DNA of 64,000 nt from Tubulanus polymorphus (GCF_964204645.1 NC_134033.1:6844231-6908230), one strand, 5' to 3'; shown: positions 7,658 through 55,756, counted from the first letter of the stretch. A program made the numbers and translations. Notes: a model not told the origin generated them from the sequence alone.

Positions 7658-7988
7658 AGTAATTAGGAAATGGCGTTTTCATACCAGAGGTCGAGAGGTC
7701 GAGACACCACTCATCACAGCTAGGCTCTAGTGAGAACGGACGATTGTTCTGTGATACACATATACAGTGAGTGCGCGTAACAACAACTGCGCGTGGATAG
7801 ATCGATACAGTGAGTCGCTACTGAGAACGGTTATTAACGCGTGTGCTATTACTGCGTGTCAACTGTGCCCGGATAAATAGATGCTGTGAGGCTTGGGTGA
7901 GAACGGTTAATAGCGTGCTTGTTATATACAAGGGGAAGTAATCCCCACTCATCACCACAAGTAATTTTTTTTCCTTATAAATGGGAGA
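7658..7988 (+). repeat. Left TIR of Maverick A
   Basis: Reverse complement of 56060-56404 apart from a few substitutions and one ~14-nt indel. Confidence 0.95.
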
Positions 7989-10900
7989 GAATAAGACAGA
8001 ACAAATTGATGTTAATGAAAATCAATATTAATGTCCATATTGTAAAAAATACATTGATAAATCTCAAAAATCGCGTCATGAAAAATCTTCAAATCATATA
8101 AAAAATGTTATAGATTTTGAAACTTCAGAAAATTCCAATGAAAGAAAAGAACGATTAGAAAATATGAATGTGGATGAAATAAAATGTGAAGTTTGTAATG
8201 AATTTATAGTTAAAAGGAATTATAGTAGACATCTCGAATCACAAAAACACCATCAAAATTTGAGTAATTATGTTTTAGGAAAAGATTATTTCGATGATAA
8301 ACCTCAAAAAGTAAAAAAACCAACTTCAAAAACTAAATCCATTTCAAATAAACCTTACATGGAAAATGTTAGAAATTATATTGATTCACTAGAAATAAAA
8401 GATACAATTGAAATATCAGAAACATTACGTAGTAAAATTGGTCCTGCAGCTATTATATTTAGATTTTTTAAAGGTACAACAATAGAAGATTATAGTAAAT
8501 TTAATGAAATAATAGAAAAAATACTAGATTTGATAACAGATGTTGAATATCCAAAAATTAGTATCTCTGGGAAAGTAAGTTTTTTAAAGTCAGAAGAGAA
8601 AATGGATTATAATATTCAAACACTCTCTGAAGAAATAATTTCAAAAACGCAAATAAAAGAGAAGTTAGAAAAAATATTTAATGAATTTAAACGTCATATT
8701 GAAGAAAGATATTTTGAGGGTTCTGGTTTATCATTAAATGAAATTATATTTTTAAATTTAAATGTTTATAATACAAAAAGGAATAAAACATCAAAAAGTA
8801 AAACAATGTTTAAAAATGATTCAAACTTTACAACAGAAAAGGATATTAAAGCATCATCTTATATTAAATTACCATTTACAACAAAAGCAGTAATAAATGT
8901 TCAAAATGAAGATAATAAATGTTTTCTATGGTCAATTATTAGTTGCTTACACCCCACAGAAGATATTACGCATAGTTTTAGTAAAACAAATTACCGGAAA
9001 TATGAAACATTATATAAAATTGATCAATATCTATAAAAATGATACCCAAAATAGAAAAAATTAATAAGTTAAAAATAAATGTATTCGAATTAATGCAATT
9101 ACCAAATACAAAAGGTGAAAATATTAAAGATTATACTTTGGAAGCTTTATATTTAACATAATATTATGATGATGAAAATGCTATAGATTTGTTATATTAC
9201 AAAAAAGATGAAAATGAACATTATATGTGGTTAAAACAAATTGATTTATTCTTTAGAACAGAAAGTGATTTTAACAGTCATAAAATTTATCTATGTAGAA
9301 AATGTTTATCTAAATTTAGAACTGAGAATGCGTTACTAAAACATAAAAGAATTATGTGATAATAAAGATTTTTGCAAATTAATAATGCCAACAGAAAAAG
9401 ATTATAAATTGAAATTTACTAATCATAAATTTAAAAATATTGTTCCATTTGTAATTTATGGGGATTTTGAATTAACTGATCAAGATAGAAAAGAAATATA
9501 TAACAAAAAGCAATTATTAAAATCAATGCATAAAGGAAATGAATTAAATGAAGACACAACACAAGACCCGCCAATTATAAATACAATTTAAAAAGTTCAT
9601 CAAAGAGCTGGCTTATGGAATTTACATCAAATCAAATTATCCCGAATCATATGAAAGTCAATATATTTCTTTTAGAGGTGAAAATGTAGTTAATGATTTT
9701 TGTGACAAAATGATTGAATTAGAAAGTGATTTTGCAAAATTATTAAACAAAAATAAAAGAATAGTTATGACAAAAGAAGATGAAATTGATTTTAATTATG
9801 CAACTCATTGTTGTTATTGTGAAAAACGTTTTTATTCATTTGATAAAAAAGTTAGAGATCATGATCATTTAAATTCAAAATATCGTGGAGCTGCTCATGA
9901 AGATTGCAATTTACAAGCTAAGAAAGTTAATTTCGTACCAATATTATTTCATAATTTATCAGGCTATGATACCCATCTATTTATAAAACAATTATCGGGA
10001 AAATTGGGTGCAATTAATCAAGAAATAAAAGAATATAATGCTATGAATGGGGTAAATGTAAGAAAATATGATTTAAAACTATTAGCTAAAACATCTGAAA
10101 ATTATATTTCATTTCAATTTGGTTGCAATAGAGTTTTAGATTCTTATAGATTTCTAGCAAGTTCATTAGATAATTTATCAAAAAGTTTAGTTGATAATGA
10201 TTTTGTTATAACTCGATATTATTATCCAAATGAACAAGATTTTAAATTATTGAGATATAAAGGTGCAATTCCTTATTCATTTTATAAAACACACAATGAT
10301 TTTAATGTAACAGAATTATTAAAAGATCAATTTTATGATCAATTAAAAGAGGAGTATGTGAAAGACGAAGTGTTTAATAGAACATTAAATATTTGGAACC
10401 ATTTTAAGATGAAAAATCATGGTGAATTAGTTGATTTATATTTAAAATCAGATGTGATGATATTGGCTGACATATTTGAAAAATTTAGAGAAGTTAATTT
10501 AAATCATTTTAATGTTGATTCTTGTTATTGTTATTCAAGTCCTGGTTTAACCTGGAAATGTGGTTTAAAATATACAAATGTAGAATCAGATTTATTAAAA
10601 GAACCAGACTGGTTTTATTATTTGAAAAATCAATTAGAAGTGGAATTAGTGGTGTTATGGGAGATAGATATTTTAAAGCAAATGATGAATATAAATTATT
10701 ATGATGCAACCTCAACCATACAAAAATTTTATATTAACAGAAGTTGAAAATGGTGATAAAACTGATTGGGAAAGCGCAATTGCGAGTTTAAAAGATGAAG
10801 CACCAAATGGTTATTTCTTTGTAGTTGATTTAGAATATCCTGAAAATATAAAGTTTAAAACAAGAAACTTACCTTATTGCCCAGAACATTTAACCGTAGA

Positions 10901-12989
10901 TGATAGTTATTTAAGTGAATACCAGAAGAAAATAAAACCGAAAGATCATGTTTTTACAGAACAATTAATACTTACTCAAAATAATAAATACAATTATATT
11001 GTTCATTATAGAATGTTAAAATTTTATCTAAAACAAGGAATGAAATTAAAGAAAGTACATAGATATATTGAATTTAATCAATCGAAGTGGTTAGAAAAAT
11101 ATATAGATTTCAATACTCAACAGAGAACCATATCAAAAACAGATTTTGAAAAAGATTTCTTCAAATTAATGAATAATAGTTTTTATGGTAAAACATGCGA
11201 AAATATTAGAAATAGAAATGATATTGAATTAGTAAATAATTCCGAAAGATTAAGACATTTACAATCAAGTCCTAGACATTTAGGAAATAAAAGATTTGAA
11301 GATTATTTAACAGCAGTTAAATTAAAAAGAACGTCAATGAAATTTAATAAACCTATATTCATTGGTTCAACTGTTTTAGAAGTATCAAAATTATTAATGT
11401 ATGATTTTTATTATAATGTTTTACAACCACTTTTTGGGGAAAAGCATATTGAAATATTATATTTTGATTCTGTAACAGCTGAAACCCCAATATTATTAAA
11501 ATGTAATGATAAAATATTGATAAGAAGAATTTCAGAAATAATTGCAAAACAAAATGAATGTTATATTTCACATGGTGAAAAAGAATTAATACAAATAAAT
11601 GGATTAATGGATTTTTGGACAAGAAATGGATGGAAAAAATTAAAGAATATTATTAGGCATAAAACAAATAAGAAAATCTATAGAGTTAGAACTAAATTAG
11701 GGTTTGTAGATGTTACAGAAGATCATAGTTTAATTAAACGAAATGGTGATGAAATAAAACCAACTGATATAAAAATTGGAGATGAATTATTACATAAAAG
11801 ATTTTTCCAAAGAATGAATCATATGTCATTCGACGAAATTATTGATAATATTTATAATATAGAACCTGAAACATAAGAAGAAAAAGAATATTTTATCAAA
11901 GGATTTTTCATGGGTGATGGTTCAGCAGGTGTGTATAAATATGTTTGGGGTAATAAATATTGTTGGTATTTATGCAATCAAGATTTGATATTATTTGAAA
12001 GAATAAAGAAATATTGTGAAGAAGTTTATCCAAATAAAACATTTAAAATCATGGATGTTATGAAATCATCAGCAGTTTATAGAATACTTGTAAATAATCC
12101 TAAAGATTTTGCTATAAAATATAGTGATGAATTATATATTCATGCAATAGTGAAAAGTAATACTTCAACTAAAGAAAAGATAGTTCCAGATTATGTATTA
12201 AATGCAAAAAATAATTTAAGAAAATGGTTCTTCATTGGATTCTACGCAGCAGATGGTGCTAAAAAATTTACAAAGGATAAAAAGATAACCTTTGCACAGA
12301 AAGGAAAAGTTGCTATATCAGGGTTAAATATATTATGTAATTCATTAGGCTTCAATATGAATATTGGATTGATTAAATCTAAACCAAATTGCTTTAATTT
12401 AAGCCACACAGAAAAAGATTTAACTGAAGAAGTTAAAGATTTATTTGAAATATATAACCCAACAGATTATGTTTATGATTTATCAACTGTAGATGGCACA
12501 TTTAACTGTGGATTTCTATTAATTTGCTTCAATACTGACAGTTACATACTAAAAATCAAGACAAATGACATATCAAAAGACTTAAAAACATTAAAACATC
12601 ATTTTGATTTTAGCAATTATCCCAAAGATCATGAACTGTTTAGCAATGATAATAAAAAGATTCCTGGTAAGTTTAAAGATGAATTAGGGGGTGATGAAAT
12701 GATTGAATTTGTTGGGATAAGAAGTAAAATGTATAGTTACAGAACAAAAGATCATGAAGCTAAAAAGTTAAAAGGAATAACAAAACATGTGGTTGATAAA
12801 CATATAGAATTTCAAGATTATATAAAGTGTTTATATAACTCAATTGTAATGAAACATAAAATGAATTGTTTAAGATCAGAAAATCCCGAGATGTACATTA
12901 ATGAAGTTGAAAAAACTAGTTTGAATCCATTTGATGATAAAAGGCATATTTTAGATGATGGAATAAAAACATTACCTTATGGCCATTAA
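7981..12989 (+). pseudogene. polB: Protein-primed family B DNA polymerase of Maverick A (N-terminal C2H2 fingers, OTU-like region, exonuclease with endonuclease VII-like insert, polymerase), intein-containing, disrupted
   Basis: ORF pieces 8164-9036, 9385-9591, 9710-10747, 10701-11876, 11910-12989; motifs YGDFE, RDHDH..GAAHEDCN, FHNLSGYD, KLMNNSFYGK, YFD/TDS, GKFKDE, PFDDKR; motif A (YIDANNLYGWAM in the B copies) deleted near 10700. Confidence 0.93.
11469..12533 (+). other. Intein with LAGLIDADG homing endonuclease inserted in pPolB motif C (Pol-c site); one in-frame stop at 11874-11876
   Basis: EILYFD|SVTAETPILL ... VDVTEDHSLI (block B TxxH) ... KGFFMGDGS, FFIGFYAADG (LAGLIDADG motifs) ... 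YVYDLSTVDGTFNCGFLLICFN|TDSYILK; B copies read YFDTDSYILK with no insert. Confidence 0.93.
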
Positions 12990-13968: not shown

Positions 13969-14456
13969 TGTCACCCTGATATAATTTGCATATTTCATAA
14001 TCATATAGATCTACAATGTCATATCGAACAGTTCATAACATTTCATAGCTCTACTACATATTATTAATAATAATAATGATAATAATAATAATATAGTATA
14101 ACTTATGACTATAGTGTCAATATGTGCTTTAAGGTCGTAATCAACATGTGACATTACTCAACATGTTTTCACGATAATTAGCTATAATCAGTGCTCATCG
14201 ATAATTAATTAATGTCTCTCAAACATGTCACTAGGTGCGTCCTGATGTCTACAACTTGTCTGACACACGTTATACTCATGATTCTGTATATAAAGACTAT
14301 GTAAAGCTATGATAATCATTCTCATTCCGGGATGCAATAAAGATTGTACATATAAGGTTTAACTGCCTTGTTGTTCCTGATGGATGGAATCCTGTACCGC
14401 TGGTGTAAATGCTAGTTCCCCAGCCAGCCTGCCCATACAACAACCAGCCGGTTACA
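13969..14456 (+). repeat. Gypsy 5' LTR
   Basis: tgtcaccctg...ccggttaca; (AAT)n tract, TATA-like tatataaag and aataaa; direct repeat of 20691-21194. Confidence 0.95.
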
Positions 14457-14458
14457 GA

Positions 14459-14513
14459 TGGCGGAGAACCGGCTTTACCTTCACAGATCGACGGTTACAG
14501 ATGGTGGAGAACC
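14459..14513 (+). promoter_or_regulatory. Primer-binding site, duplicated (tggcggagaacc / tggtggagaacc), probably tRNA-Ala type
   Basis: TGG 2 nt after the LTR end; TGGTGGAGAA complements a tRNA 3' end ...TTCTCCACCA. Confidence 0.6.
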
Positions 14514-14911
14514 CAAATTTAAGTCCTCGTGACTTACACAAGTACAGATGAAGCTGCTGATATACGGATTATGACTGAAACATACCACAAAATAGAAGAT
14601 CGCATTCAACTACACTTGCGACAAGACCGTGCTGATCGCCGAAATCGCTGCTGTTTTGGTGGATACAACACATTATGGTAACTTGTTGTCAGCCATAGGT
14701 AATATAATTGTATCTTCATCTCGAATTAGCGGTCGGATATTGAGTATAGGAAATTATAGCTCTTTGAGTTTGGGAGCATTACTGTGTAGTTGAGCAGTTT
14801 GATACATATCTCAAGTTTCGATTGTTCAATTCAAAGCATTTTTCTAGCAAACATTATTCATAATCAGTTTCATTTCGTTCTGTACACTTACGTGGTATAC
14901 ACTTCAAAAAG

Positions 14912-17900
14912 ATGAAGCGCATACATTGTAGTAAGGATGTTTGTCGCAAAGAAGTATCTCGATTATGGGTACCTGATATCAATGCGGTTGATATAAGCTT
15001 AGTTTCAGGGTTGAATCGGAATATTATAAACGTTGATATTAATAAACACTCCCAACGAGCATTAGTCGATACAGGTGCATCAATTTCATGTATTGCTAGA
15101 TCAACGGTCGAAGGATGTATCAAAAATCCCATATATAGTCATTCGGATATAAACATTATTAGAGGAGTTTGTGGGGAAGCACATTCAGTAATTGGTAGAA
15201 TTGATGTACCCATTTGCATTCAATCTCATGTATTAACACATAAGTTTTATGTATTCGATAGGCTACATACAGATGTCATTCTAGGACTGGATTTTTTGAA
15301 GGAAAACAATGTGAACATTGACCTTGCATCAGGCACAATTGAATTTAAAGATGTTTCGATTCCATTAAAGATTCTTAGGAATAAACAAGAGCTGTACAGA
15401 AATAAAGCTAAAACGATTAACAGGATAGTTATTTCACCAAATACTAAACAAATAGTTCAAATAAGTGTCGATACGTTGGCGGAAGGTTCATTGGTTGTTT
15501 TTGAACCATACAACCACAAGTTATTGAATAAATGTTTAGGTGGAGGTAAAACATTATGCAAAATCACGGACGGTAAAATTTTCGCCACTATTGTGAATCC
15601 TACTAATGAACCGATTCAAATTTCAAAAGATTATGTGCTTGGATTTGCATACAATGTAACTGACGATGATTGTTTCGATTTCGCAGATGACAATACTAGT
15701 GCAAACATTTTCTCCGTTGATACTGATACACTACGAAATTATGATGAAAAAATTAAAATAGCGGAAAATTTAGGCATACAAATTCCAGAAAACTCAGGAT
15801 TGACTCTGGAACAAAAAGAGAGATTAATGTATCTAATTGGATGTAATAGGTCAATATTTGCTAGTAACTTACAGGAAATCGGCAAAACTTCATTAGTTAC
15901 CCAGAAACAACTGATGACGACCCTATAATTCGAAGACCTTATCGCAAAAGTCCACACTTGAGACAGGTAGAAAACGACTTGGTTAACTGTTAGATGCCGA
16001 TCTTATTGAACCAACTGATTCTGTTTTCAATAATCCTGTGGTTTTGGTCAGAAAACCAGACAATACGTATAGGTTTACTATTGATTTTAGAAAACTGAAT
16101 TCGAAGACCGTAACGCAATCATTTCCACTACCTCATTTTGATGATGTATTTGACACTATAGCCGATGCTAAACCCATGATATTTAGTAAATTAGATCTTA
16201 ATTCAGGATTTCACCCGATACCGTTACATGAAGAATCGCGTCATAAAACAGCTTTTCAAACGACACAAGGCAAAATGTGCTTCAAAAGAATGCCGATGGG
16301 AATTAAGAATGGTCCTATGGCTTTTCAGATGCTTATGTCAAAATGTTTAGGTCCTTTGAATTGGCAATATGTATTGTGTTTCATTGATGATCTAATCATA
16401 TTCTCTCAAGATTTTGACAGTCACCTAGTTCATTTATCAAATGGTTTTGAGAAGCTTAAACAAGCCGGTCTAACTGCCAAACCGACTAAGTGTGAATTTG
16501 CAGTCCCAGAAATTGAATATCTGGGTTATACCTTATCTGCTGAGGGTCTTCGTACTTGTAAAAAGAACATCGAAAAGGTTAACAGCTTTCCAGTTCCGTC
16601 CAATGTCAAACAATTACGAAGTTTTCTAGGGTTGACAAATTTTTACAGGAAATTCATTCAAAATTATGCATCAATAGTTTCTCCCTTGAATGCTTTGAAC
16701 TGTAAAGATGTGAAGTTCAAATGGACCCCTGATTGTCAGAAAGCTTTTGATACGCTTAAACAGGAATTAACTAGTGATCCAATTCTGATATTCCCTGATT
16801 TCAATTCTCGTTTCTATCTCTCGGTTGACTCTTCGGACTATGCTATTGGTTACGTTTTGTCTCAGAAAAAGAATAATTTAGAACATGTTATCGGATATGG
16901 TGGTCGCGCGTTACGTGTAAACGAAAAGAAATGGCATATTAGTGATAAGGAAGGATTAGCTTTGATTGAAGGAATTCAGAATTTTCATCCCTACCTGATT
17001 GGAAAGGAATTCACTGTGTATACTGATCGCAAAAGTTTAACGTATATTAATGAAAACCGACTAAACAAACGTATAGGACGTTGGGAATTGGCTCTTCAAG
17101 CATATAATTTTTCTGTTGAACACCGACCGGGTAAGAAAAATGGCAATTGCGACGGTTTAAGTAGACGAGATTATGATAAACCTCCTCCTCCTAGACCTGA
17201 TGATCCTTCACAAGAAACTGTTTTCACAGCAATGACAAATGGATCTCAGTCTTATGAAGTCGTGTTTGATTATACTAGCCCCGTGGTGGCTGAGTTAACT
17301 CCTGATACTTATAAGGAGATTGAACTGATTAAACCTGCTAATATAACTCACTTACAGCGGAATTGCCCTGAAGTTTGTCACATGTTGGAACATAAGTTAG
17401 ATCCATCATATGCTGTCAACGATGAAAAACTGTTTCGAAAGCTCAATTGGAGGGCCGACCAATATGGTATTATCGATGGCACGTTATATTATTTGTATAC
17501 GCCTAGAGTTACTGGTATTCCTAAAGCCGAGAAGGTCATCCCAGTTCTTGAAGTTCCTAGGTCATTACGGTCGGAAATATTGAAAGCTTACCATGATTCA
17601 TTAGTGGGAGGTTGCCACCAGGGTCGAGATCGTCTTTATGGTGTTTTACGTAATAAATATCATTGGGATTCCATGTATGAAGATTGTGGGAAATATGTTT
17701 CTACTTGTGAGAATTGCCAACAGGTCAAACGGAATTATCATAGTCATCCAACACCCTTACAACCATTACCAATTGAAGGCTTATTCTCCAGATGGCACAT
17801 TGACTTTCTTTGCAATCTTCCGGAGACACCTGATGGTAATAAGCATATTCTACTCGTGGTAGATAGCTGGAGTAAATGGCCCGAGGCTTTTCCTCTCAAA

Positions 17901-19810
17901 ACTCAGGAAACAACAGAGGTAGCAAAGGTTCTCTTTAAAGAGATATTTTCGCGGTATGGTGCTCCTCATTCTTTAGTCTCTGATCGCGGTAAAACATTTA
18001 TGTCTAAGTTAGTTGGAGCTCTCTGTGAATTGTTTCACGTGAAACAACATTTCACCGCTCCGTACCATCCTCAATCAAACTCAGTTTGCGAGAGAACTAA
18101 CCAGTACATTTGGCAGTCGCTTAGGTCGTATTGTAACCAGGATCAGACTAATTGGGATACGCTAATGCCAAGTGTAATGATGAGTTATAGGCATGTTCCC
18201 TCAACTGAAGGTTCAGGTTTTAGCCCTTACCACATGTTATTTGGTCAAGAAATTCGTCTACCAGACACGGCTTTAATTCCACGGCATTCGTTAGCTACTG
18301 ATCATAAGGCATACTTATCACATATATTTAAGGCAGCTGGTCATATCACGAAATATCGCTAACGAGAATATTAAAAGAGCTCAAAATAAGTATAAAACTC
18401 AGTTCGACAGAAAGGCATTAAAACCTCAGTTTCAGATTACTGATCGCGTTTGGCTAAAAGTCATGAAAGTTAAGAAAGGAAAATCACCAAAACTGTAGAA
18501 AATACGTAGGTCCCTATTTCATTCAGTCAATAGCTAGTAAAGGGGCTTATCAATTACGAAGAATCTCTGATAACGTTTTACTCCCATCGCATGTCAATGG
18601 GAACCGTCTTAAGTTATACAAAGATCCCTCATCGCGTCCAAATTATGAAGAGGTCGCATGGGATGGTTCAACAGCTGAGGAAAACCCTGAATTATTCGAC
18701 GAGATTCATGGGCGCTTAAAATATAAACCTAGCAATTTAGCTGATACTCCAACTGACACTCAAATTTCGGCTGACGATAACAAAGATAGACCGGTAGTTA
18801 CTGAGACTTTCAATGAATCAGACATTCAGAAAATTCTACAGTACAAACTAGAAAGTGGTTTATGTAAATATCGCGTAAAATGGAAGTCAGATTTAAATCG
18901 TGGAAATTCTTGGGAATTAGGAAAATGGATCCCAAATAAACTAATTCGACACTTTCACGAAAACTATGCGGCATCAGGCAAAAAACGTAAGAAACCTTGC
19001 AAAAGTAAGTTTTTTGATCGCATTACAGACAATTCTGATAATAATCAGGGACAACAAAACGATCGAAATGAAAACGAGAATGACGTAGCAAATATTATAA
19101 TCACAAATACAGATAGATGTCAGGATAGTGAAGTAGAAATACGTGAAAAACCTAGAAGAAAATTAAATGGAACCGTAATACAGGGTGTATATGTTACTAA
19201 TGATCGCTTCCAGGAATTTGATAATCAGATGTCTAATGAAGACTCATCAAATAATGAGAATGTAAAAAGTGTATATTGTTCAGCTCGATCGAAAACTCAC
19301 CAAGATCATACGAATCAGGATAGCGTTAAGAGTAGTTCAGATTCAAGTAATGTCGCTATCGAAGAGGCTATTCGGACGGGAAATCGTCGAGCATTATGTC
19401 CATGCCCTACAGGAAAAACGGTTGTTGCTACCAAATTTCAGAATAATGTGCTATTCGTAAAATATCACCATGACAGTCCATGGTACCGGGCATCAAAACG
19501 AGATTGGTTTGAAGTAAGTGATTACGGAGAAAGTCTTGAACATGTATGGGGTATATATCATGTCATCTTGGAAAATGAAAGGCCTCCCACCGAAACCGAG
19601 CTCAAAAACATTATACCTACTGCCGCTCGAGCCGTATCAACCCGTTTCAACGACCAGGGAGTCTTAGAATACTATGTTTTATTTGGGCGGTTCGCTCCCC
19701 CTGCATGGCGGCCTTGGTATGAAACACCTCCTGGCACACAAAGTCAGTACGCTTCTCGTTTAAAATCTATTTCTTCGAAACTCAGTAGTAGCTACAGTAG
19801 GTTTTCTTAA
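14912..19810 (+). pseudogene. pol: Gypsy pol (protease, RT, RNase H, integrase, GPY/F motif, chromodomain-like C-terminal extension), frameshifted
   Basis: ALVDTGAS; RFTIDFRKLN, CFIDDLIIFS; DSSDYAIG, DGLSR; HHCC, WHIDF, SDRG, ERTNQ; frame ~18500-19810 carries VGPYFI and KYRVKWK..SWE. Confidence 0.93.
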
Positions 19811-20675
19811 TTAAGCTTTCCAGGATATCATATGGATATCAGCGATGAATTGATCAGCTTATTACTCGTACGTATATTTTCAGTTTATTTACGCCCTGAA
19901 CGGTTCAAAGATCGGATAGTTCATACGTTCAATTAATATATACTAGTCATTTTAAGTAGAGTGCATGAAATCTTTCGTAGAAAACACGCAAATAACGTCA
20001 TTGTAAATCTAATACGAGACATAACTGAGATGAGTGTACGGTACGGTATGAATTTATCAATGATATAATATAACGTGGATTAATTGAGACTGCGATGATA
20101 GGTGTTAAAACAGTTCAGTTATGCTGGTGGTGTCATCTTTGCTCAATTACTATGGTTATTCTTTATTTACTTCTGACCACTTATTTTGGATGATGATAAT
20201 TTTTTCCTTTTGGTTGACAAGGGTAACTGTATTTGTGTTGTGTCATTGCCTGAACTCTACTCTGATGTCAAATGTTGCATGTGACTATCATTGTGTCACG
20301 AAGTTATTTCCAGTCAGTAATCGAAAGATCTTCAAAACAGAGAAATGCGTACTACTTGCAACTTGCATCACCAACTGATCTTCGGGACACTATAACTACA
20401 CAACACGTCGCTACTTCTGTTCGTCGCAGAACCAACCAGAATTCGGGGATCGTTTGCAGATCATTCAAAATTACAGTTAACGTATCATCGCATCGTCCGT
20501 ATATAACGACAACATGTGACTCTTTCGTGAATGACTGATAATCCGGATGTTACTGTCCAGCGTTTGCACATTTTTGCGCGGTGAAAGTCAATCTTTCATG
20601 TTTTCGCGATGGACGGAGTTTTGATGAACTTATAGTATCTGCGTTTTCCGCAAATTTGGAGGACCAAATTTAATT

Positions 20676-20688
20676 GGACAAGGGGGCA
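20676..20688 (+). promoter_or_regulatory. Polypurine tract
   Basis: ggacaagggggca immediately upstream of the 3' LTR. Confidence 0.7.
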
Positions 20689-20690
20689 TC

Positions 20691-21194
20691 TGTCACCCTG
20701 ATATAATTTGCATATTTCATAATCATATAGATCTACAATGTCATATCGAACAGTTCATAACATTTCATAGCTCTACTACATATTATTAATAATAATAATA
20801 ATAATAATAATATAATATAACTTATGACTATAGTGTCAATATGTGCTTTAAGGTCGTAATCAACATGTGACATTATTCAACATGTTTTCACGATAATTAG
20901 CTATAACCAGTGCTCATCGATAATTAATTAATGTCTCTCAAACATGTCACTAGGTGTTTGTTTGTGCGTCCTGATGTCTACAACTTGTCTGACACCTAGT
21001 TCTCACATTATACTCATGATTCTGTATATAAAGACTATGTAAAGCTATGATAATCATTCTCATCCCGGGATGCAATAAAGATTGTACATATAAGGTTTAA
21101 CTGCCTTGTTGTTCCTGATGGATGGAATCCTGTACCGCTGGTGTAAATGCTAGTTCCCCAGCCAGCCTGCCGATACAACAACCAGCCGGTTACA
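20691..21194 (+). repeat. Gypsy 3' LTR
   Basis: Direct repeat of 5' LTR with small indels. Confidence 0.95.
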
Positions 21195-21542
21195 CTCCCA
21201 ATCTTCTATATTTTCAGGACTAAATTTCATTCGACAAGGCTCGCAGATATGATCTTTTATATTGTCCTTGTCATAGAATAAGAAAGGTCTTTTCTAAATA
21301 ATTTCAGGTTCAACTTCAACAGAATTACTATTACTTTCGTTACTATCAACATTAGCCGTTGCGCCATTAATTTTACACTTCTCTGAATGTTTTTTAACAT
21401 AATTTCTTGAGAATAATTTATTACATTTTGGACAGTTTTGTTTAGGGGGTTTATAATTTTCATCATGTTTTTTCATATGTCGAGCCATATTACTTTTTCT
21501 TAGAAGTTCACCACAAATTTCGCATGGTATCTTCTCATCCAT
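21195..21542 (-). pseudogene. 5' part of Maverick A multi-C2H2 zinc-finger gene
   Basis: CEICGELLRKSNMARHMKKH, CPKCNKLFSRNYVKKHSEKC; continues across the Gypsy insertion. Confidence 0.75.
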
Positions 21543-21599
21543 TTATTAGGGAAAAAAATTACTAGTGGTGATGAGAGGTAATTTTTTGTGTTATAAATA

Positions 21600-22357
21600 A
21601 TGGGTGAATTAATAGAATACAGAATATTTGTTGATTCTAGAAAACTTACAAATTATAAATCACATAATTTACTAGTTCAATTAGATAGAGAATTTAAGAA
21701 TTGTGTTGATTTAAAATTAGTTAATATAAGTTTATGTAACTCATTTTACAATATATCGGATAAAAGTCTAGAACATTTAATTTTTTCAATCTTTTACAAA
21801 AAAGGAATAAATGGTTTTTTATATATTTAAAACCAGGATTATATAATTTAAATAAATTAGCACAAGAAATTGAAAGAAAAGCTCGAGCTAAATTAGGAAG
21901 AGATTCCGGATTTAGTATTAGATTTTCAAAAAGTGATATTTCTAATAAAATAAAGATTAGGTTAGCTCATGAAGAACAATTTAAATTTACAGTAAGAAAA
22001 CCTTTAGCTAAACTGTTAGGAATTAACCCAGATATTGTTACAGTAAACGCAGAAGGTAGATCAAATTTAATGCCTTTAACACACTTTTATATTTATTGCA
22101 ACTTAATTGATCCTACAAAAACATTTGAAGCAACTAAAGATATAACTTGTAATTCTAGTTTACTAAACATTTTACCATTGAAGAATGTTAAACAATTTGG
22201 AACGCAAATAAATTATAATTTAGCTGAATGTGATTTCAAACCTTGTATTCCTCAATTTAATAATTTGAAATTTGAAATTAGAAATCACAATGGATACTTA
22301 ATTGATTTGAATAACTTTCCTGTAATATATGAATTAGTTATAAGATGTAAAGAGTAA
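21600..22357 (+). pseudogene. Putative minor capsid (penton) protein of Maverick A, frameshifted
   Basis: IFVDSR, PGLYNL, FYIYCNLI, C-terminal FEIRNHNGYLIDLNNFPVIYELVI pattern of Polinton single-jelly-roll proteins; intact homologue at 38355-39110. Confidence 0.72.
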
Positions 22358-22373
22358 TTTTTTCATTATACAA

Positions 22374-22729
22374 ATGAATATAACTGTTGGACCGAGTATA
22401 TGTTTTGGATTTGATTTTAAACGTGAGAAAGAAATGAAATTTAACATTACTGGTGTAATTATACATATTAAAAATATTGCATTTTCAAATGAAACAACAT
22501 TTGAGTATGAAACAACAATAGATAAAGAAACTTTAAATGTAGAAAAGATTACTAATTTAATTAGAGAATCTTTAAGATTTTATGAATTAGATGAAGATTT
22601 TATCATCGATGATATTAAAAAAATAATAATTGAAATATATACAAATGAAACTAGTAATGAAAAAATGTTGAATTAATTATAAATAAGTTAACTAAATATT
22701 TTGAAGATAGTAATTTTTTTGATAAATAA
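22374..22729 (+). pseudogene. Conserved hypothetical Maverick protein (~118 aa), frameshifted near the 3' end
   Basis: Homologous to 37982-38338 and 62285-62641. Confidence 0.75.
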
Positions 22730-22951
22730 ATGAGTGATAATAAGTGGATAATAACTGGATTATATAATGGAGCATTACTATCAGTTGGAACTGTTGGTTA
22801 TTCAATGGTATTAAAAAAAGTATTTAAAATGGGAAGTGTTAATGTTGATAGATTCGATATAAATGATATTTTAAAATTAACATTAGCAGTTACTTTATCT
22901 AATTTAACTATTGATTATTTGGAAAAACAAAAATATATTCCTCCCATATAA
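22730..22951 (+). CDS. Small hydrophobic Maverick protein (73 aa)
   Basis: Near-identical in all three copies; two hydrophobic segments. Confidence 0.8.
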   Translation: MSDNKWIITGLYNGALLSVGTVGYSMVLKKVFKMGSVNVDRFDINDILKLTLAVTLSNLTIDYLEKQKYIPPI

Positions 22952-22975
22952 ATGCGTAATTATTTTACTAAATAA

Positions 22976-23398
22976 ATGGCTTCTGCAATTATAACTATTA
23001 TAGGATCGGCAATTGTTAACGCTTTAGCATTTACTGGTAGTGGTTATTTATTTAAGCATATTGATAAAAATAGTTCATTAGGAGAACAAAGAAGACATAA
23101 CTTAGCATTATAAAAATACAATAAAGCAGCAGAAGAATATACAGAAAAGAGGCAAAACTATATGGATTATATTAACAAGGAATTATATGATCAGAAGATT
23201 TCACATAGAGATTTTCAATCAGTTGATGATGCAATGAGTTTATATAACGCGGTAACCAATAAAGAAAAATTACATCTACATAAACCTACAATATCAGATT
23301 ATTATACCCCAAGTAAAGAACAACAGAAATATGAAATAATTTGGATTTTAGGTGGAACTGTTATTGTTATATTTGTAGCATATAGATTTACTAATTAG
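22976..23398 (+). pseudogene. Maverick membrane/coiled-coil protein (140 aa), internal stop
   Basis: Homologue of intact 37328-37750; hydrophobic N- and C-termini. Confidence 0.78.
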
Positions 23399-23417
23399 TA
23401 ATTTTTTTGCTAAATAA

Positions 23418-23843
23418 ATGGATGATAATATTGATATTATTCCTCATGATATAAATAAAACTAAATTAAAAATATATTTAGAAAAACAAATATTAGAATT
23501 TGAAAATGACTTAAAGATAAAAAAGAAAAAATATTTAAAATCTAAAATTATATATTATTTGATTATAAGTGGTTCGGTTACAATTAGTTCTGTAATAACA
23601 TTTCTAGCAATATTTTCGCCATTAACACCTTTAGCTATATCAATTGGCGTATTAGGATTAAGTTCAAGTGTTTTAACTGGTATAAGTTCAAAATTAAATA
23701 TAAAAAGTAATAAAGAAAAAATTAAAACTAATATAAAAGAGATTAATAAATTGAAGAATACACTAGATTATATAATAAGTTTAAATGGTCATACAACAGT
23801 TGAAGAACAAGATAAATTATTAAAAGAATTGATAAATTATTAA
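23418..23843 (+). CDS. Maverick two-TM protein (141 aa)
   Basis: Central hydrophobic hairpin; near-identical to 36874-37308 and 63330-63764. Confidence 0.82.
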   Translation: MDDNIDIIPHDINKTKLKIYLEKQILEFENDLKIKKKKYLKSKIIYYLIISGSVTISSVITFLAIFSPLTPLAISIGVLGLSSSVLTGISSKLNIKSNKEKIKTNIKEINKLKNTLDYIISLNGHTTVEEQDKLLKELINY

Positions 23844-23859
23844 TTTTTTAATTATATAA

Positions 23860-25070
23860 ATGGTAGATAGTTTTCCAAAAGCTTTCCAATATAATAAATC
23901 AATTAAATATAATATTCCAGCAATAGATTTTGATAAAGATATTACATATAGAAATGAAGTTTTAGATTCATTAACTAATTTAGAAATTTATGTCACTGAA
24001 ACTTATAATTTTAATGCAAAGATGGAAAATATATTTCATGTATATTTAATTGATTTTAAAAAATTGAAAGATGAAAAACAATGGTTATTAAAATCTAATA
24101 TGAAGTATTGGCAGAACCAATTAAATTTTGCTGTTTATTGTGCAACAACAGGTTGTGGAATTAGTTGGAATGATCATTTGAATAATTCTAAATATAAATT
24201 AATTCAAAGTTTATTTAGATTTCATACATACTTTCAAATCAGAATAATATTAAAAGAATTAGAGTGTGCTTTACCAGGATCTAGATATTTTAAAGAATAA
24301 GATATTAATATTAATTTATCAAAGTTTTATAAAATTTGCAATGAATTTAATATAGATATAAATAATTATGATTTTAGAACAAAAATTGGAACAATAAGAT
24401 CACTTCCTTGCCCAAGAAATATTGCGGAATATTGTGCACTTCCCATACCATCTAATAGCTTTTATAATATCTATAATAATAAATTAGGTTATGCTAAAAT
24501 AGAAACAAAGGCTTTAGAAACATTAAATTTCAATAAATTACCGAAATTTTATGATCATTTAAAACAAGAAAACAATAATAATTGGGTTTATTTCATTTTA
24601 GAAAATAATGAAGGTTTTACAAAATCAGGTATACAAAGAATAAATCAATCTATTAGAACTTATTTGATATGTATTCTAGGTGCACAAGTTGAAACAAGAT
24701 CCCCAATAATTGGAAATTTATATACATCATTTGATACACAGAAACAATTCAAAGTATTATTTGAAGATTCAATTCATAATGATAAAAATAGGTCGATTCC
24801 AGAAAACATTGTAAGATATCAAAATTATTTAGATAAATCACATATTAGATTAGGTTATTGTATAGGCCATAATCTATCAATTATTTCTAATGATTTAGTA
24901 TTAAAGATGGGAAATATAATTGGTTATAATAATCTAATTAAAACTGCAACAATAAATAATTCATTTGGATTAAATGATATAAATAAAAAGATTATTACTG
25001 CTCCAAAATTAATGGAAGGTGAAAAAAATAAAAAACATATTCAATCAACAGAAACTAAAACTAAGAATAT
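23860..25070 (+). pseudogene. 5' part of conserved ~430-480 aa Maverick protein, split by the Helentron
   Basis: MKYWQNQLNFAVYCATTGCGISW shared with 35559-36857; breaks after STETKTKN and resumes at ~49906. Confidence 0.85.
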
Positions 25071-25125
25071 AGCTGCAAAGCAGCGATAACGAATTTTCTG
25101 CACAGTCTTAGAATCCTGTTCAACT

Positions 25126-39503: not shown

Positions 39504-42500
39504 TTAACACGTTAGAATTCTTTTCATTATCTCGTTCTCTTTTGTTTCTTCTCTTGTAAATTTTAAGTATTCATCTAAATTGCAACCATATGCAACTGTA
39601 TGAATTCCATCATCTAAAATATATCTTTTATCATCAAATGGGTTTAGACTTATCTTTTCAATTTCTTCAATAAACATTTCATGATCTTCAGATCTTAAAC
39701 ATCTCATCTTATGTTTTCTAACTTCTTCATTGAATATAAAATTGATGTAATCTTTGAAATGAATATTCTTTTCTACTACACTTTTGGTTATTCCTTTTAA
39801 CTTTTTAGCTTCATGTTCTTTAGTTTTATATGAATACATTTTAGATATAATACCTATGAACTTTATCATTTCTTCACCGCCTAATTCATCCTTAAACTTC
39901 CCTGGAACTTTTTTATTATCATTGCTAAACAATTCATGATCTTTAGGATAGTTACTAAAATCAAAATGATGTTTTAATTTTTTTAAATCATCTGTTATGT
40001 TATCAGTTTTTATCTTTAATATGTAACTGTCGGTATCAAAATATGATATTTCTATATGTTTTTCTCCAAAAAGTGGTTGTAATACATTATAATAGAATTC
40101 ATACATTAGTAATTTTGATAATTCTAAAACTGAAGCGCCAACATAGATTGGTTTATTGAATTTCATTGATGTTCTCCTCATTTTAACTGCAGCTAAATTT
40201 TCATCAAATATTCTGTTACCAATGAACTTAGGATATGTTTGTAAATGTATAATTCTTTTACCATTACTGACTAACTCAATATCATTTCTATTTCTAATAT
40301 TTTCACAAGTCTTACCATAGAATGCATTATTCATTAACTTGAAGAAATCTTTCTCGAAATCAGTTTTAGCTTCAGTTCTCTGTTTGGTGTTAAAATCTAT
40401 ATATTTTTCTAACCACTTAGATTGGCTGAATGAAATATATCTATGTACTTTTTTTAGAATCATTCCTTGTTTTAGATAAAACTTTAACATTCTATAATGT
40501 ACTACATAATTATATTTATCTTCCTGAGTTACCATTAACTTTTCTGTATGAATATGATTTTCGGGTTTAATTTTTTTTTGGTAATCTGATAATTCTTCAT
40601 GAGTTACAGTTTTATGTTCGGGACAGTAAGCTAGATTTCTAGATTTAAATTTTTTATCTTCAGGATATTCTAAATGTACAACAAAGAAGTAACCAGTACC
40701 TGAATCATCTGCAATATCTTGGATTCTTTTCTTCCAATCAAAATTATCATTATTTTCATTCTGTAAAACTTCAGTTAATTCAAATACTCCATAAGGTTGT
40801 GGTTCCATCATTGCCCAACCATATAAATTATTTGCATCTATATATAATAACTTATATCCGGGGTTATCATTTACATTGAAATATCTATCACCTCATACAC
40901 CTGAAACTGCTCCTCTTATAGATTTTTCAAATAATAATAATACATCTGATTTTAAATATATATCTACTAATTGCCCATGATTTTCTATTTTGAAATGATT
41001 CCAAATATTCAATGTTCTATTATATACTTCATCTTTAACATATTCATTTTTTAATTCATCATAGAATTGTTCTTTCAATAATTCAGTTATATTGAAATCA
41101 TTATGTGATTTATAAAATGAATATGGAATTGCTCCTTTATATCTCATTAATTTAAAAATCATCATTATTTTGATAATGTTGTTTTAATATTTTTAATTCA
41201 TCATCAACTAATGATTTTGATAAGTTATCTAATGAACTATTTAAAAATCTATATGAATCTATAAATCTTAGACACCCAAATTGGAATGATATATAATTCT
41301 CAGGGGCCGGTTTCACAAAGCATAATTAACTTTAATTATAATTAGGACCTAAATCATGATTAAATTTCCTTAATCATGATTAGTTAATTACGATTAAAAT
41401 TCGGTTTCACGAAAGGGTTTAATTACAAAATTAACTAATTACATAATTAGGCAACTTGATTACAATTTAACTGTATCAAAATGGCGGAACTTTAGACAGC
41501 CATTTGCTGTCCAAGCATCAACAACCTTCCTTGTTTAGAGGAAAAGAGAAATTCACTCCTTTGGGAGTTAAAGATTGCTCTGAAAGGTCTCAGGAACCAG
41601 TGGAAAAACTTAGCAAGATTTCTCAGAAGTTTTTAAATAGAAACTCACCTCCAGTCAGCAAAATTAAATCCTCGTAAATGGGGTTTATTTCCGAGCAGTG
41701 ATTAGCACTTTTTAACACTAACTCCATAGATATGTACTCTACTGACGGAAATCTATCATATGTATGGACAAAATCAATTAATCCAATACTTCTAAGTATG
41801 TGGTGGTCGTGCTGACAAAAACATAGGACGTTTGAAAATAAATCAATAGAATTTAGAGTATTGACATGCCTTTTTTCAAAAGGCAAAAAATCCAAATTAT
41901 TTGAGCCAAACAATCTGAAGAACTAAATAAGTGTAGGAATTGCCGTCGTCAATTAATAAACACCAAATTCCATGAATAATATCTGCAGCTTTTTGTTTTT
42001 AATAATAAACTAATGATGATTATAAGGTTTAATTACACTCTAGAGGAGAATTAAATTTTGTAATTAACTTAATTATAATTAAAGTTAATTACGTTTTGTG
42101 AAACACCTAACTTGATTAAATCATGATAATTTAATCATGATTAGTGATTTAATCATAATTAAGGGTTAATTACGCTTTGTGAAACCGGCCCCTGATGTTT
42201 TAGCTAACATTCTAAATTTATAAGTTGGTATTTTATCTTTTGATCTATTTGAATTTAATCTCTCTATTTCATTATTGATTTCTTCTATTTTATGGCATAA
42301 CAGTTTGATGAATAAATTTGCATCATATCCTGATAGATTATGAAATATAACTGGTACAAAGTTAATTTTCTTAGCTTGTAAGTTACAATTCTCATGTGCA
42401 GCGCCTCTAAACTTTCCATTCAAATGATCATGGTCTTTTACTTTTTTATCTTTATAATTAAATATCTTTTCACAATAATAACATTTATCTGCAAACGCAA

Positions 42501-44281
42501 ATTCTTCTTTATCTTCTTCTGTCTTTATAATTTCTATATTTGTATTCAATAATTTACTAAATCTTATTTCATATTCAATTAATAAGTCACAAAAATGATT
42601 GATAACATTTTCATTTCTATAATCATAATATTCACTTTCAATTAGTTCTGGATAATCAGATTTAATATATATTCCGAAAGCTGCATCTGATTGATGAATC
42701 TTTATAATAGTATTTGTTATTGGTGGTTCTTCTGAAAAATCATGTTCATTAGAATTTAATTTCTTTCTTTTATAATATATTTCTTTTCTATCTTGATCGG
42801 TTAATTCTTTATTTAATGATTCAAAATCTCCATATATAACAAATGGAACTTTATTTTTGTAATCATATTTTTTGAATTCTAATATTTTATCTTTTTCATT
42901 TGGTAAAACTAATTTACAATAATCATGATTTTTCACATAATTGTTTATGATTTGATAATGTACTTTCATTACTGAATCTATGTAAACATTTTCTACAAAG
43001 ATATATTTTATGGTGATCATTTTCTGATTTAAAAAATAAATCGATTTGTTTAATCCACATATAATGATTTTCATAATATAGTATATCTATAACATCGTTT
43101 GAATCATAATCTTTTGATAGATATAAAGGTTCTAATGTATAATGTTTTATGTTGTTACCTTTTGTATTTGGTAATTTGATTAAATCAAATACATTTATTC
43201 TTAAATTATTATCTCTTTCTATTTTTGGGATGTTTTTAATTATAACAGGATACTTATCTATCTTATAATTATTTTCAAATTGTTTATAATTTGTTAATCT
43301 ATAAGTATGTTTATTATAATCTTCAACTGGGTGTAAACAACTTATAATTGTCCATAGAAAACATTTATCATCTTCATTTTGTACATTTATTACAGCATTA
43401 GTTTTAAATAGTAGTTTAATATAACTCGATGCTTCAATATCGGGTTCTTTATAATATGATACATTATTTTCATCGATTGGTTTTGATTTAGTTAACTTAT
43501 TATATTTTGTGTTATAAACATGTAAAGTCATAAATATTATTTCATCAAATATTAAACCTGATCCTTCAAAATATTTCTCTTCTATTTTAGTTTTTACTTC
43601 ATTATAACATTTATCTAATTTATCATCTATATGTTGTTTTGAAATAATATGTTGTGAATGAGAATTTATATTATATATTGGTTTATCTTCAGATTTTACG
43701 AATTTAACTTTAGAAGATATACTTATTTTAGGATATTCAACATCAGTTTTTATTCTTATTATTTCTTTCATATTTTCTAAATGTTTTTTATTTTCTTCTA
43801 ATGTTTTTCCTTTATGAAATTTAAACTCGATAGCTGCTGGGCCAATATCACTTTTAAATGCTTCGGTTATCTCTATATCTTTTTTATTATCTAATGAATT
43901 AATATATTTTCTTACATCTTCCATGTATGGTCTTTTATTGTTTAATTTATTGTTTATGCTTTTAATTGTCTTCTGTTTCTTATCATTATCTTTATCAAAA
44001 TAATCTTCAACTAAAATATCATTATTCTTATTTCTAATATGACTTTTAGATTTTAAATGTTCTTTATAATATCTTTTATCACTGAATGATTGATTACATG
44101 TATCACATTTATATGTTTCTTTTTCATTCTTTAGTTCATCTAATTTAGTTTCTAATATATCATCTTCATATTCTAGTTTCAATTTATTCTCTAAATGTGT
44201 TTTAGTTTTATTGTGTCTTGCTTTTTGGGATTTATCTATATTGATATTACATGTTGGGCAGTAGTACTTATTTGCTTCCAT
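39504..44281 (-). pseudogene. polB: Protein-primed DNA polymerase B of Maverick B1, intein-less, disrupted by a Harbinger MITE and frameshifts
   Basis: C2H2 fingers, EDDKCFLW, YGDFES, DHDH..GAAHENCN, FHNLSGYD, KLMNNAFYGK, YFDTDS. Confidence 0.93.
41304..42191. mobile_element. Non-autonomous PIF/Harbinger-type element (888 bp)
   Basis: TIRs gggccggtttcacaaagc / gctttgtgaaaccggccc flanked by CWG (cag / ctg); removal restores LAKTSENYISFQFG. Confidence 0.85.
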
Positions 44282-48460: not shown

Positions 48461-49905
48461 GTTTTGTCGCGTTATTTTAGTTTTGTCGTTTTGTCATAAT
48501 GTCGCCCTCATTTGCATATACGTGTTTTTTTACGCATGGCCCTTATCAGCCACCACACTAAAGCCTTAAGGTCGCGTAAAACTCGATAAACACTTCAAGC
48601 GACACAGCGAACGATCTCCTTTCCCCCACAGCCAACACTTAACCTAGTAGAGGCTACTAGCCTATGTAGGCCTATGTATATGCGTAGGCCTAACATCCGG
48701 ACAGATTGGTCGTAGGCCTATTGAATAACAACCCACCTAAATATCGTAAAAATTTTGTTTTGAAGTTCAATCCAATGAGTCCGTTAATAAACGCAACAAT
48801 TATACTGTGTTTGTTTGTTTGAGACAGTAAAGCTCAGTACCGGTAGGCCTAAAGCCGCGTCAAACTCGATAAACACTTCAAGCGACACAGCGAACGATCC
48901 CTTCCCCCCACAGCGAATGCTTACTCCGAATGTCAAGTGTGAGTCCAGCATACGGAAAGGATTGTGTTATATACTTGTATTTAGTAAATACCTTGTGTAT
49001 TTGACAATGATCGGTATGTACTGTAGGAAATATAGAGTATTGATGGTATTGATATAGAGGTTGAAGCCCGCGGCCGAATAAAGTAATATATTTCTTTATT
49101 TTGATACCTCGTCGACATAACAGCTTTTCTCCGCTATATCTCTTCGGCGTGTTTAGTTTAGGCCTACGACTCCCCGGTACACTTATGATTTATCTTAGTA
49201 AATACACGGTTAATTTGGTAAAGAAAAATAGATATTGCTAAACTAACTGCTTGAAACCCGCAGCCAAATCACTGGTAGTTATAAATTAATTTGTACTCGA
49301 TTTGATTCTCATGATGAGGAGAAACTCGCAGCTGATCCCCGGAACGACGAAATAGTAACACACGTCGATTCGTCGATGTTTACGGCTCGACAGTGCTTTT
49401 AAAATCTAAAGTAGTAAATTTCCAGTGTATCGGTAATATGATTTGATGAGGAAATGGGCTATTGTTAAAATCACTGTTTGAAGACCGCGACTGAATGTGA
49501 AGTCTGCGGCAATAAATTAGTTCATTTATACTTGAATTGATAATCGAAGTGACAGTCGGCCTGCGGGTTGATTTCGGGATGACGACTCGAAAAACATGTC
49601 GCCCCATTGAATGGGGCTAAATTTTCGATGTTTACGGCCCGACAGCGCTTTTGTAACGATGATTCGTGAAAAAACACGCGGGCTATTTGTAGATATCAGT
49701 GAGCTGAACGATATTATATGGATTGTATATGAAACAGCGGTAAGGTAACAAAGCCTATGTTCTTTTGGTAAAAATAGTGTGGAAGAAAATAATAATAATA
49801 ATAATCACGCGGATATCAATAGGGTTTTCTGTGAAATAACAGAAAACCCTAATAAGAAACACGCGAATCTCAATAGGGTTTTCTGTGATGTAACAGAAAA
49901 CCCTA

Positions 49906-50088
49906 AATATTAAATTAGATAATGATTCTAAAATAAAATATTATAATACATCAGAAAATATTAAAACTGATAATATTCAACATGATATAATTAAAACTGA
50001 TAATGATAATAAATCCCATGAAAATACTAAATTAGCTTTAACTTGTATAGGAATTGTTATAGGAGGAATATTATATTTTAAATTTTAA
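49906..50088 (+). pseudogene. 3' remainder of the Maverick A gene begun at 23860
   Basis: NIKLDNDSKIKYYNTSENIKTDNIQHD...LALTCIGIVIGGILYFKF matches the C-terminus of 35559-36857. Confidence 0.88.
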
Positions 50089-50104
50089 TTTTTTTATTAT
50101 ATAA

Positions 50105-51542: not shown

Positions 51543-51582
51543 ACATGATAAAAGATAAATGATTAATTTTTTTGTTAAATAA

Positions 51583-52823: not shown

Positions 52824-52853
52824 AAATATAAAGTTAAAATTAAGGATATATAA

Positions 52854-54590: not shown

Positions 54591-54798
54591 ATTCAACTAG
54601 CTTGTTAATCTAGTATATTTTTAGTTACATTCTAGTTGAATTCTAGTTATTGGTAGTTGAAACAAAAATCAAATAAAATTCCACAAGAAATAAATAAAAA
54701 CAACAATATTTCAACTAGCTTGTTTATCTAGTTGAATTCTAGTTACATTCTAGTTGAATTCTAGTTGCAACAACACAACTAATTTTTTTGTTATATAA

Positions 54799-55389: not shown

Positions 55390-55756
55390 ATTGAAAATAT
55401 TGTTATTTCTACTTCTTCTAATAATAGAATATTTGATAAATGTCTATATTTTACAGTTGGATTTGTAATTGTATTCATTTTGATTGGGTGTAATTGGTAT
55501 AAGAAATCAAATAAAATTCATGATATTTATAATTCTGAAACAACTGCTATCAAAAATGAAAATACTTCTGAAATTCCAAAATTGATAATAAAAAAAATGG
55601 ATTAATATTTTAGAAAAAAAGCAAAAAAAATGATTTTTTTTTAATTAATTGAATATCTCACTACTTTTGTGTATCTATGCGGAGCAATTAAATTGTCCAG
55701 ATAAGTCATTTCGGATTCTAGATATTCATTATTTTTATTAATTTATTTTTTAAAAT

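Follow-up and report, generated by a model that had tools for sequence, protein, structure and literature searches.

Is the insert that splits the polymerase gene of a Maverick element in this DNA a genuine intein and, if so, in whose chromosome does it lie, where did its lineage originate, and does that lineage move? Reviews describe metazoan genomes as lacking inteins (PMC8529194), and the relevant part of a eukaryote-wide survey places them in fungi, protists, plastids and large DNA viruses only (PMC5784728). The locus was analyzed within a window of 64,000 nucleotides, meaning the whole stretch of DNA presented here, which holds an interrupted polymerase gene in Maverick A and two copies with an empty site in Mavericks B1 and B2.

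The insert in polymerase motif C

The insert measures 1065 bp and is in frame with the protein-primed DNA polymerase (pPolB) of Maverick A. It is preceded by ...IEILYFD and followed by TDSYILK..., with polymerase motif C split as YFD/TDS and the first Asp of the D-T-D catalytic motif separated from its Thr. Its parts are as follows.

11469..12533, + strand: intein at the Pol-c site with a predicted LAGLIDADG endonuclease, 355 codons
11469..11795, + strand: N-terminal splicing (Hint) region, with Ser1 and the block B motif at 11712-11732; region end approximate
11874..11876, + strand: stop at intein codon 136, apparently private to the Maverick A copy
11901..12257, + strand: LAGLIDADG core, with motif 1 at 11901-11921 (Asp150) and motif 2 at 12237-12257 (Asp262); matches to Pfam LAGLIDADG_3 and the I-DmoI fold
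12468..12533, + strand: C-terminal splicing region, with block F Asp337, penultimate Phe and Asn355; Thr+1 at 12534

The features of a class 1 intein are present, namely a Ser nucleophile as the first residue, a block B TxxH within V-T-E-D-H (residues 82-86, with Thr83 and His86), a block F Asp at residue 337, a terminal Asn, and Thr as the +1 residue. The penultimate residue of the Maverick A copy is Phe; His is usual at this position without being obligatory, and relatives carry His, Lys or Ser. Assignment to the Pol-c allele follows from the Asp/Thr position in PolB motif C and from kinship with inteins of that site, whereas the endonuclease is recognized by two LAGLIDADG-type motifs with acidic residues (residues 145-151 and 257-263) and by the LAGLIDADG fold of the predicted model. 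A single in-frame stop lies ahead of the first of these motifs. A preliminary description, made from the sequence alone, had reported this in-frame insert with its boundaries, Ser start, block B, two LAGLIDADG motifs, block F and Asn/Thr end, all of which were found, and had placed it at a YGD/TDS-type site, which is the same as that given for Mimivirus in the account of its polymerase intein (PMC549080).

The intein was searched as a read-through translation with the stop as X, and the comparison with Hint and LAGLIDADG profiles proposed in that description returned matches. NCBIfam intein_Nterm (TIGR01445) scored 27.7 bits against a cut-off of 24.5 and covered intein residues 2-88, Pfam LAGLIDADG_3 scored at its cut-off of 22.5, and Pfam Intein_splicing (PF14890; E 4e-7) reached 30.3 bits, which is under its cut-off of 35.8. 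Residues 27-111 matched PI-PkoII in sequence (E 4e-7). An AlphaFold model with a pLDDT of 67, built on a 9-row alignment, had endonuclease-bearing inteins as its best Foldseek matches (TliVMA, E 1e-11; PI-PfuI; PI-PkoII; PI-SceI), followed by mini-inteins and I-DmoI. Additionally, 245 proteins longer than 622 residues matched the intein at E<=0.001. Together, the TIGR01445, Pfam, Foldseek and protein matches indicate that the insert is not a chance likeness. On its residues, profiles and modeled fold, the insert in the Maverick A polymerase is confirmed as a genuine Pol-c intein with a predicted homing endonuclease. A Hedgehog-like non-splicing domain was considered and rejected.

Chromosomal setting and host

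Three Maverick copies, one Gypsy element and several repeat arrays share the window, of which the following features bear on the intein and its host.

7659..7988, + strand: left terminal inverted repeat of Maverick A, starting AGTAAT and abutting a 118-bp satellite
8032..12989, + strand: pPolB of Maverick A, with Pfam DNA_pol_B_2 and Endonuclease_7 and several frameshifts/stops between about 9030 and 10700
13969..21194, + strand: Gypsy LTR retrotransposon inside Maverick A, with a 4-bp target duplication
21195..25071, + strand: Maverick A continued after the Gypsy element, 88-90% identical to the B copies
39585..44281, - strand: pPolB of Maverick B1, broken, with an intein-free site at 40035/40034
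49897..56059, + strand: Maverick A remainder after the nested block, with capsid (51583-52820), integrase (52865-53977) and packaging ATPase (53981-54532) by Pfam
56060..56404, - strand: right terminal inverted repeat of Maverick A, 94% identical to the left one
57339..61030, + strand: pPolB of Maverick B2, broken, with an intein-free site at 60585/60586

Without its nested insertions, Maverick A spans ~16.7 kb and carries pPolB, rve integrase, packaging ATPase and major capsid genes between terminal inverted repeats, which is the gene set and repeat structure of a Maverick/Polinton. A nested block of ~24.8 kb containing Maverick B1 interrupts it, and one ORF is split between 25071 and 49897. 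In its pPolB, the Endonuclease_7 match lies upstream of, and separate from, the intein, and tblastn of the related polymerase P0002 matches in several frames. The element is decayed, with one stop in the intein, frameshifts upstream and nested insertions; neither a 6-bp target duplication in the satellite flanks nor, by simple motif scan, a maturation protease was seen. Given the decayed pPolB, the nested insertions and the satellite setting, Maverick A is dead and the chromosome around it is eukaryotic and rich in repeats, and the Gypsy insertion with its target duplication marks it as chromosomally resident. The satellite occupies 1-7656 in about 65 copies, arrays of a 31-bp repeat lie at 44711-48471, and a 0.9-kb repeat of another element (25056-25989 and 46233-47155) is associated with the nested block. 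The LTRs of the Gypsy element are 94% identical, and a weak chromodomain match (E 0.003) follows its integrase.

Both B copies are empty, as the preliminary description had stated. Their uninterrupted site reads GAT/ACC GAC AGT, and in the 30 bases around it B2 differs from Maverick A at 1 position and B1 at 2, which makes the B alleles plausible homing targets, as had also been proposed. No sweep of the intein into B is seen: Maverick A seems mostly intein-plus, whereas B1 and B2 are empty despite the near-identical site. High A/B identity beside the site was considered as evidence of conversion and rejected, other stretches being equally alike. Across modules, A and B share 70-81% identity in pPolB (8032-12989 of A), 88-90% in the downstream and capsid genes (21595-25070 and 50750-52857), and 76% in integrase/ATPase, which is inverted relative to capsid in B1; these differences suggest that modules may have been exchanged between Mavericks.

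Sequencing reads extend the picture to other copies in the species. Reads and contigs of three DNA-type runs cover 30/30 bins of 8000-22000, so the insert is not an assembly artifact; a run presumed to be RNA gave no coverage, which is uninformative about expression. About half of the sampled words occur in four runs from a single study. In run X5, which comes from another sample and study and of which ~12% was read at 85% likeness, depth was 232 in the bin consisting entirely of intein and 230-285 in two A-specific bins downstream, compared with 325-397 in bins of flanking extein, to which B-type reads can contribute, and a median of 118 for the Gypsy interior. The closeness of the intein depth to that of the A-specific flanks suggests that most A-family copies carry the intein. 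Stop-free copies, which the preliminary description had recommended looking for, seem common, the stop being nearly absent from X5: 241 of 243 reads differ from the Maverick A copy at codon 136, so the stop looks private to this copy. Among the 15 joints listed of 150 in the read analysis, none spans the intein. Many other Maverick copies lack the Gypsy insertion, with 136 X5 reads skipping Gypsy at its main joint. In contigs of run X4 (sample S2), Maverick sequence (8000-13600) was ~80x deeper than the Gypsy interior (14538-20141; medians 40484 vs 508), compared with 2.8x in X1 and X5, depth not being a copy number; the X4 excess could reflect amplification or replication of the Maverick, library bias or an effect of summing contigs.

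The read data bear directly on whether the locus is real. An assembly chimera, a contaminant virus or a non-splicing Hint-like domain might be invoked because Pfam Intein_splicing falls under its gathering cut-off, but the Gypsy insertion with target duplication, the satellite surroundings, the coverage by reads of another sample and study, and the recurrence of the same junction in many independent assemblies leave such explanations a negligible likelihood; the chimera was rejected outright on the reads and contigs of the runs that cover the locus. The satellite, the copy number and the Gypsy insertion show that the DNA belongs to a eukaryotic nuclear chromosome. The host itself is probably an animal: among the 120 pPolB relatives listed of 6243, two of the three named by organism are animals, Pinctada imbricata and Ladona fulva (45% identity), and the top Atlas clusters of the Gypsy pol are commonest in Chordata, a weak lead. 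The same evidence speaks against a protist or fungal host, which would leave the intein real and is independent of the mechanism discussed below. We consider such a host unlikely. In its favor, no host gene lies within the 64-kb window, a weak chromodomain match follows the Gypsy pol, and HNH-bearing pPolB2 is reported from oomycetes, and pPolB2 generally from metamonads, in sections of Jeong et al. (bioRxiv 10.1101/2023.08.22.554363). The proposal of a genome-integrated Maverick in a metazoan germline accordingly stands as to its chromosomal, eukaryotic residence and is probable as to the animal, while the co-infection that it invoked is conjecture. The third named relative, P0245, is a Polinton pPolB fragment on a 1.4-kb contig labeled Bartonella, which is probably eukaryotic contamination.

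Relatives of the intein and their likely origin

Among the 120 longer matches listed of the 245, the exteins were RNA-primed PolB in 107, Polinton-type in 8 and topoisomerase II in 5, and 7 of the top 9 were Polinton-type (41-62% identity). Similar-length proteins gave a comparable picture, with 21/40 in the same intein set (40-72%) and most of these bearing pPolB-type flanks where a flank was present. Several clusters of the relatives are large, with 136, 121 and 55 members, and the contigs listed for them reach 1 Mb, which fits elements present in many copies in eukaryotic DNA. Ser1, TEDH, the two endonuclease Asp motifs, the Asp of block F, the terminal Asn and Thr+1 are retained in each of the 12 Polinton inteins examined, and the eight that were compared pairwise share 41-77% identity. 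Domain content and GVMAG contig matches suggest that the remaining RNA-primed PolBs are giant-virus proteins; the extein flanks of Maverick A align with giant-virus PolB at shuffle level (18-21%).

Searches of viral and archaeal sequences were also made. A degenerate pattern for the C-terminal junction of the intein had 0 matches in viral_contigs, and scans of related loci (37 viral and 80 metagenome loci, the latter the best 80 of 130) found no pPolB of the Maverick A type. The best 150 matches in a 50% representative library included 139 new proteins, none of which matched the B1 polymerase. Eleven archaeal loci were found, of which 8 gave whole Pol-c inteins (L118 and L120-L126, from Promethearchaeota, Aenigmatarchaeota, Iainarchaeota and unclassified archaea); these are more distant than the giant-virus-type inteins.

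Several relatives occupy other settings. The P0158 cluster (55 members), P0163 and P0173 are ORFs that are almost intein only; their N-terminal flank, of ~11 residues, does not follow pPolB, and often there is a short C-terminal flank of a few residues. These ORFs may represent decayed copies, a split gene or an intein-bearing derivative that is non-autonomous. The same intein superfamily occurs in the type II topoisomerases P0007, P0095, P0110, P0111 and P0114, mostly at a motif-C-like site TDQD/TDG, and at a second PolB site (P0008 and others), which implies non-allelic jumps. P0242 ends in a deoxynucleoside kinase fragment.

The intein trees were built from homologues gathered by similarity to the query, without the Mimivirus sequence itself. 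Polinton inteins form one clade in all three, with a support of 99 in a quick tree of 118 rows, from which P0044, P0083 and P0102 were omitted (wrong end or atypically long), and of 100/100 in each of two later trees of subsets (51 and 44 rows). When the 44-row tree is rooted with the 8 archaeal Pol-c inteins, this clade falls inside the giant-virus-type PolB inteins (89/97). Its sister is a group sharing a C-terminal GFPLI-type motif, with moderate, unstarred support (85/92; 86/93). One sequence of that group, P0030, exactly matches the intein of GVMAG-M-3300020169-51, a genome listed as Imitervirales IM_01, Mesomimiviridae, in a taxonomy supplement (PMC8575486) whose entries, as far as consulted, contain 2 of 6 GVMAG names. 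A group with a Mesomimiviridae genome among its members is thus probably the sister of the Polinton inteins, whose lineage likely passed from giant-virus polymerases into Polintons on a single, ancient occasion. The support being moderate, this direction is likely and not proven. Because the nearest relatives form an entire clade of inteins in Polinton pPolB, a giant-virus jump, if there was one, would be ancient and upstream of Maverick A. The giant-virus source put forward in the preliminary description is therefore upheld for the clade, which nests among giant-virus-type PolB inteins, and fails for the immediate ancestry of this intein, whose nearest relatives are Polinton inteins; Mimivirus as the specific source is not borne out, the only giant-virus relative that could be named being the Mesomimiviridae (IM_01) genome.

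Mobility, mechanism and meaning

The distribution of plus and empty alleles bears on whether the intein moves. The extein tree comprises 83 rows, including about half of the lower-ranked relatives, and leaves out P0005, whose exteins do not align. Intein presence requires 7 changes for 8 rows on this tree, against a shuffled mean of 7.8, with 105 of 500 shuffles as low, and starred branches force 6 changes. The closest extein relatives of Maverick A, P0240 and P0499 (84-88%), have no intein at this site. Plus and empty alleles also coexist within clusters: among the 15 listed members of the P0003 cluster, 7 have the intein and 6 span the site without it, and the P0006 cluster holds both kinds of allele with nearly identical flanks. 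Between 6 plus and the 2 closest empty alleles of the P0003 cluster, there are 0 fixed differences from -1000 to -8, 11 from -7 to +44 and one at +104, at the protein level. This is the pattern expected if the intein came with its flanks from a sister family (co-conversion), and it could also reflect ordinary recombination at a conserved motif.

The clearest apparent jump is that of P0005, into an unrelated Polinton polymerase. Its intein is sister to that of Maverick A plus P0002 (97/84, 97/92), whereas its exteins align to the others at shuffle level (21% vs null means of 19-21%), gave no BLAST match among the other proteins collected, and look like a different type of Polinton polymerase, one commonest in arthropods and molluscs. 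Taken together, the sequences indicate horizontal movement in the form of patchy presence, a local conversion-like tract and this one jump. Intein and extein identities nevertheless track each other across seven related polymerases and Maverick A (Spearman 0.60, 28 non-independent pairs), so much of the history is co-descent and the gain is old. The separate intein and extein trees that the preliminary description had called for therefore yielded the NCLDV affinity it expected as well as a partial congruence with co-descent, which it had named beforehand as refuting. The history read from these data is one of an old gain, followed by loss and re-invasion.

We regard it as likely that a decayed intein occupies the catalytic motif of this Maverick, that intact copies splice and spread by cutting empty alleles, and that the lineage goes back to what was likely a single, old gain from giant viruses. 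Descent without present homing offers a different account, in which one ancient gain was followed by vertical inheritance and repeated loss, the endonuclease being a relic. The correlated identities, the agreement of the main groupings of both trees, the similar GC of intein and exteins (0.25 vs 0.24-0.27) and the still empty B copies are all compatible with it, but it would require many precise losses, given that the motif is uninterrupted in 115 of the 120 relatives listed for B1 and that this length-limited search showed an intein start in none of them. The placement of P0005, the local tract of P0003 and the retention of the endonuclease Asp motifs in 12/12 Polinton inteins favor mobility, and we judge purely vertical descent rather improbable.

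Regarding direction, transfer from Polinton-type polymerases to giant viruses might be argued from the sister link, which has a bootstrap of only 85-86, from the poorly resolved backbone of the giant-virus-type inteins and from the long branch that the archaeal root forms. With either topoisomerase-intein or archaeal roots, however, the Polinton clade lies deep inside a more diverse giant-virus-type set, and the preponderance of RNA-primed over Polinton-type exteins among the longer matches listed (107 vs 8) also makes this direction very unlikely. A direct jump in recent times, taking the intein from a Mimivirus-like PolB to the Maverick A family, would explain the shared insertion site and the 35-43% identity to giant-virus-type inteins. 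It is contradicted by the deep clade of far closer Polinton inteins, the nearest being P0002 (62% over the full length) and P0161 (72% over 161 residues), and by the 117 viral and metagenome loci scanned, none of which holds a closer full-length intein relative or a matching pPolB. This jump, a strong form of the idea in the preliminary description, was rejected as barely credible. An old giant-virus gain with predicted homing among Polintons remains our preferred reading.

In class 1 inteins, the acyl shift at Ser1 is aided by block B and followed by transfer to Thr+1, cyclization of the terminal Asn, and ligation. The same residues are named for the Mimivirus PolB intein in the portion of its description on which we draw (PMC549080). 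By this chemistry, Ser1 of an intact Maverick copy would start the N-O shift with the help of block B, Thr+1 would receive the N-extein, and the terminal Asn would free the intein as the exteins are ligated. The polymerase would be active only after splicing, so selection on replication of the element would maintain splicing. The endonuclease is predicted to cut the conserved empty site, whereupon repair would copy in the intein and some flanking DNA. Many similar Maverick copies in each nucleus would serve as donors and targets, so that invasion, loss and renewed invasion may alternate and the intein may on rare occasions jump to another polymerase family.

Known systems share parts of this arrangement. 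As described in passages of Ogata et al. 2005 (PMC549080), the Mimivirus PolB intein and archaeal PolI inteins share the motif C site, a length of ~350 residues, Ser first, Asn last, Thr+1, TxxH and LAGLIDADG, whereas the host protein in Maverick A is the protein-primed polymerase of an integrating, multi-copy transposon-virus. Endogenous giant-virus polymerases with inteins on nuclear scaffolds of Klebsormidium, Tetrabaena and Hondaea, noted in part of a study of Anaeramoeba (PMC10710043), likewise brought a viral DNA polymerase intein into a nuclear genome. In those algae and protists, as far as that account goes, a whole giant-virus gene was endogenized; the Maverick intein sits in another polymerase class, within a transposon with plus and empty alleles, and likely in an animal. 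The VMA1/PI-SceI and Prp8 nuclear inteins also combine Hint and LAGLIDADG domains and home in the nucleus, but in the survey passages that treat them (PMC5784728) they occupy single-copy host genes of mostly unicellular eukaryotes, whereas the Maverick intein resides in a multi-copy selfish element.

Nuclease domains inserted in Polinton polymerases have been described before. In the sections of Jeong et al. that treat it (bioRxiv 10.1101/2023.08.22.554363), pPolB2 carries HNH and VSR nuclease domains, for which these sections describe no splicing domain, in contrast to the full Hint-LAGLIDADG intein in the active site of the Maverick A polymerase; the word 'intein' has 0 occurrences in their main text. 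One sentence in Krupovic et al. (PMC11071308) suggests that nuclease insertions in pPolB stem from intein invasions. A 2026 preprint on mosaicism has 0 occurrences of 'intein', and the passages seen of a cryptophyte PLV paper and of Yutin et al. mention inteins only generally. No Hint/LAGLIDADG intein in a Polinton is described in the literature searched, most subscription journals and Repbase being outside its scope. An intein with homing endonuclease motifs in a Maverick protein-primed polymerase, of a lineage that appears to run across several Polinton families, thus seems to be new.

The finding would extend inteins to protein-primed polymerases, to transposable elements and, likely, to animal chromosomes. 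There is perhaps an even chance that animal genomes harbor true homing inteins, as an old giant-virus-derived lineage in the Maverick polymerases of several hosts that converts empty copies in the manner of a gene drive and has jumped between two Polinton families sharing little beyond the catalytic motif. Since the intein splits that motif, no intein-plus Maverick would be active unless its polymerase were spliced in the host cell. The intein also provides a sequence marker for earlier encounters of Polintons with giant viruses. The crossing of an intein between polymerases with barely similar DNA, a problem raised in the part of Ogata et al. 2005 cited above (PMC549080), becomes testable here, as does homing among many dispersed donor and target copies in one nucleus.
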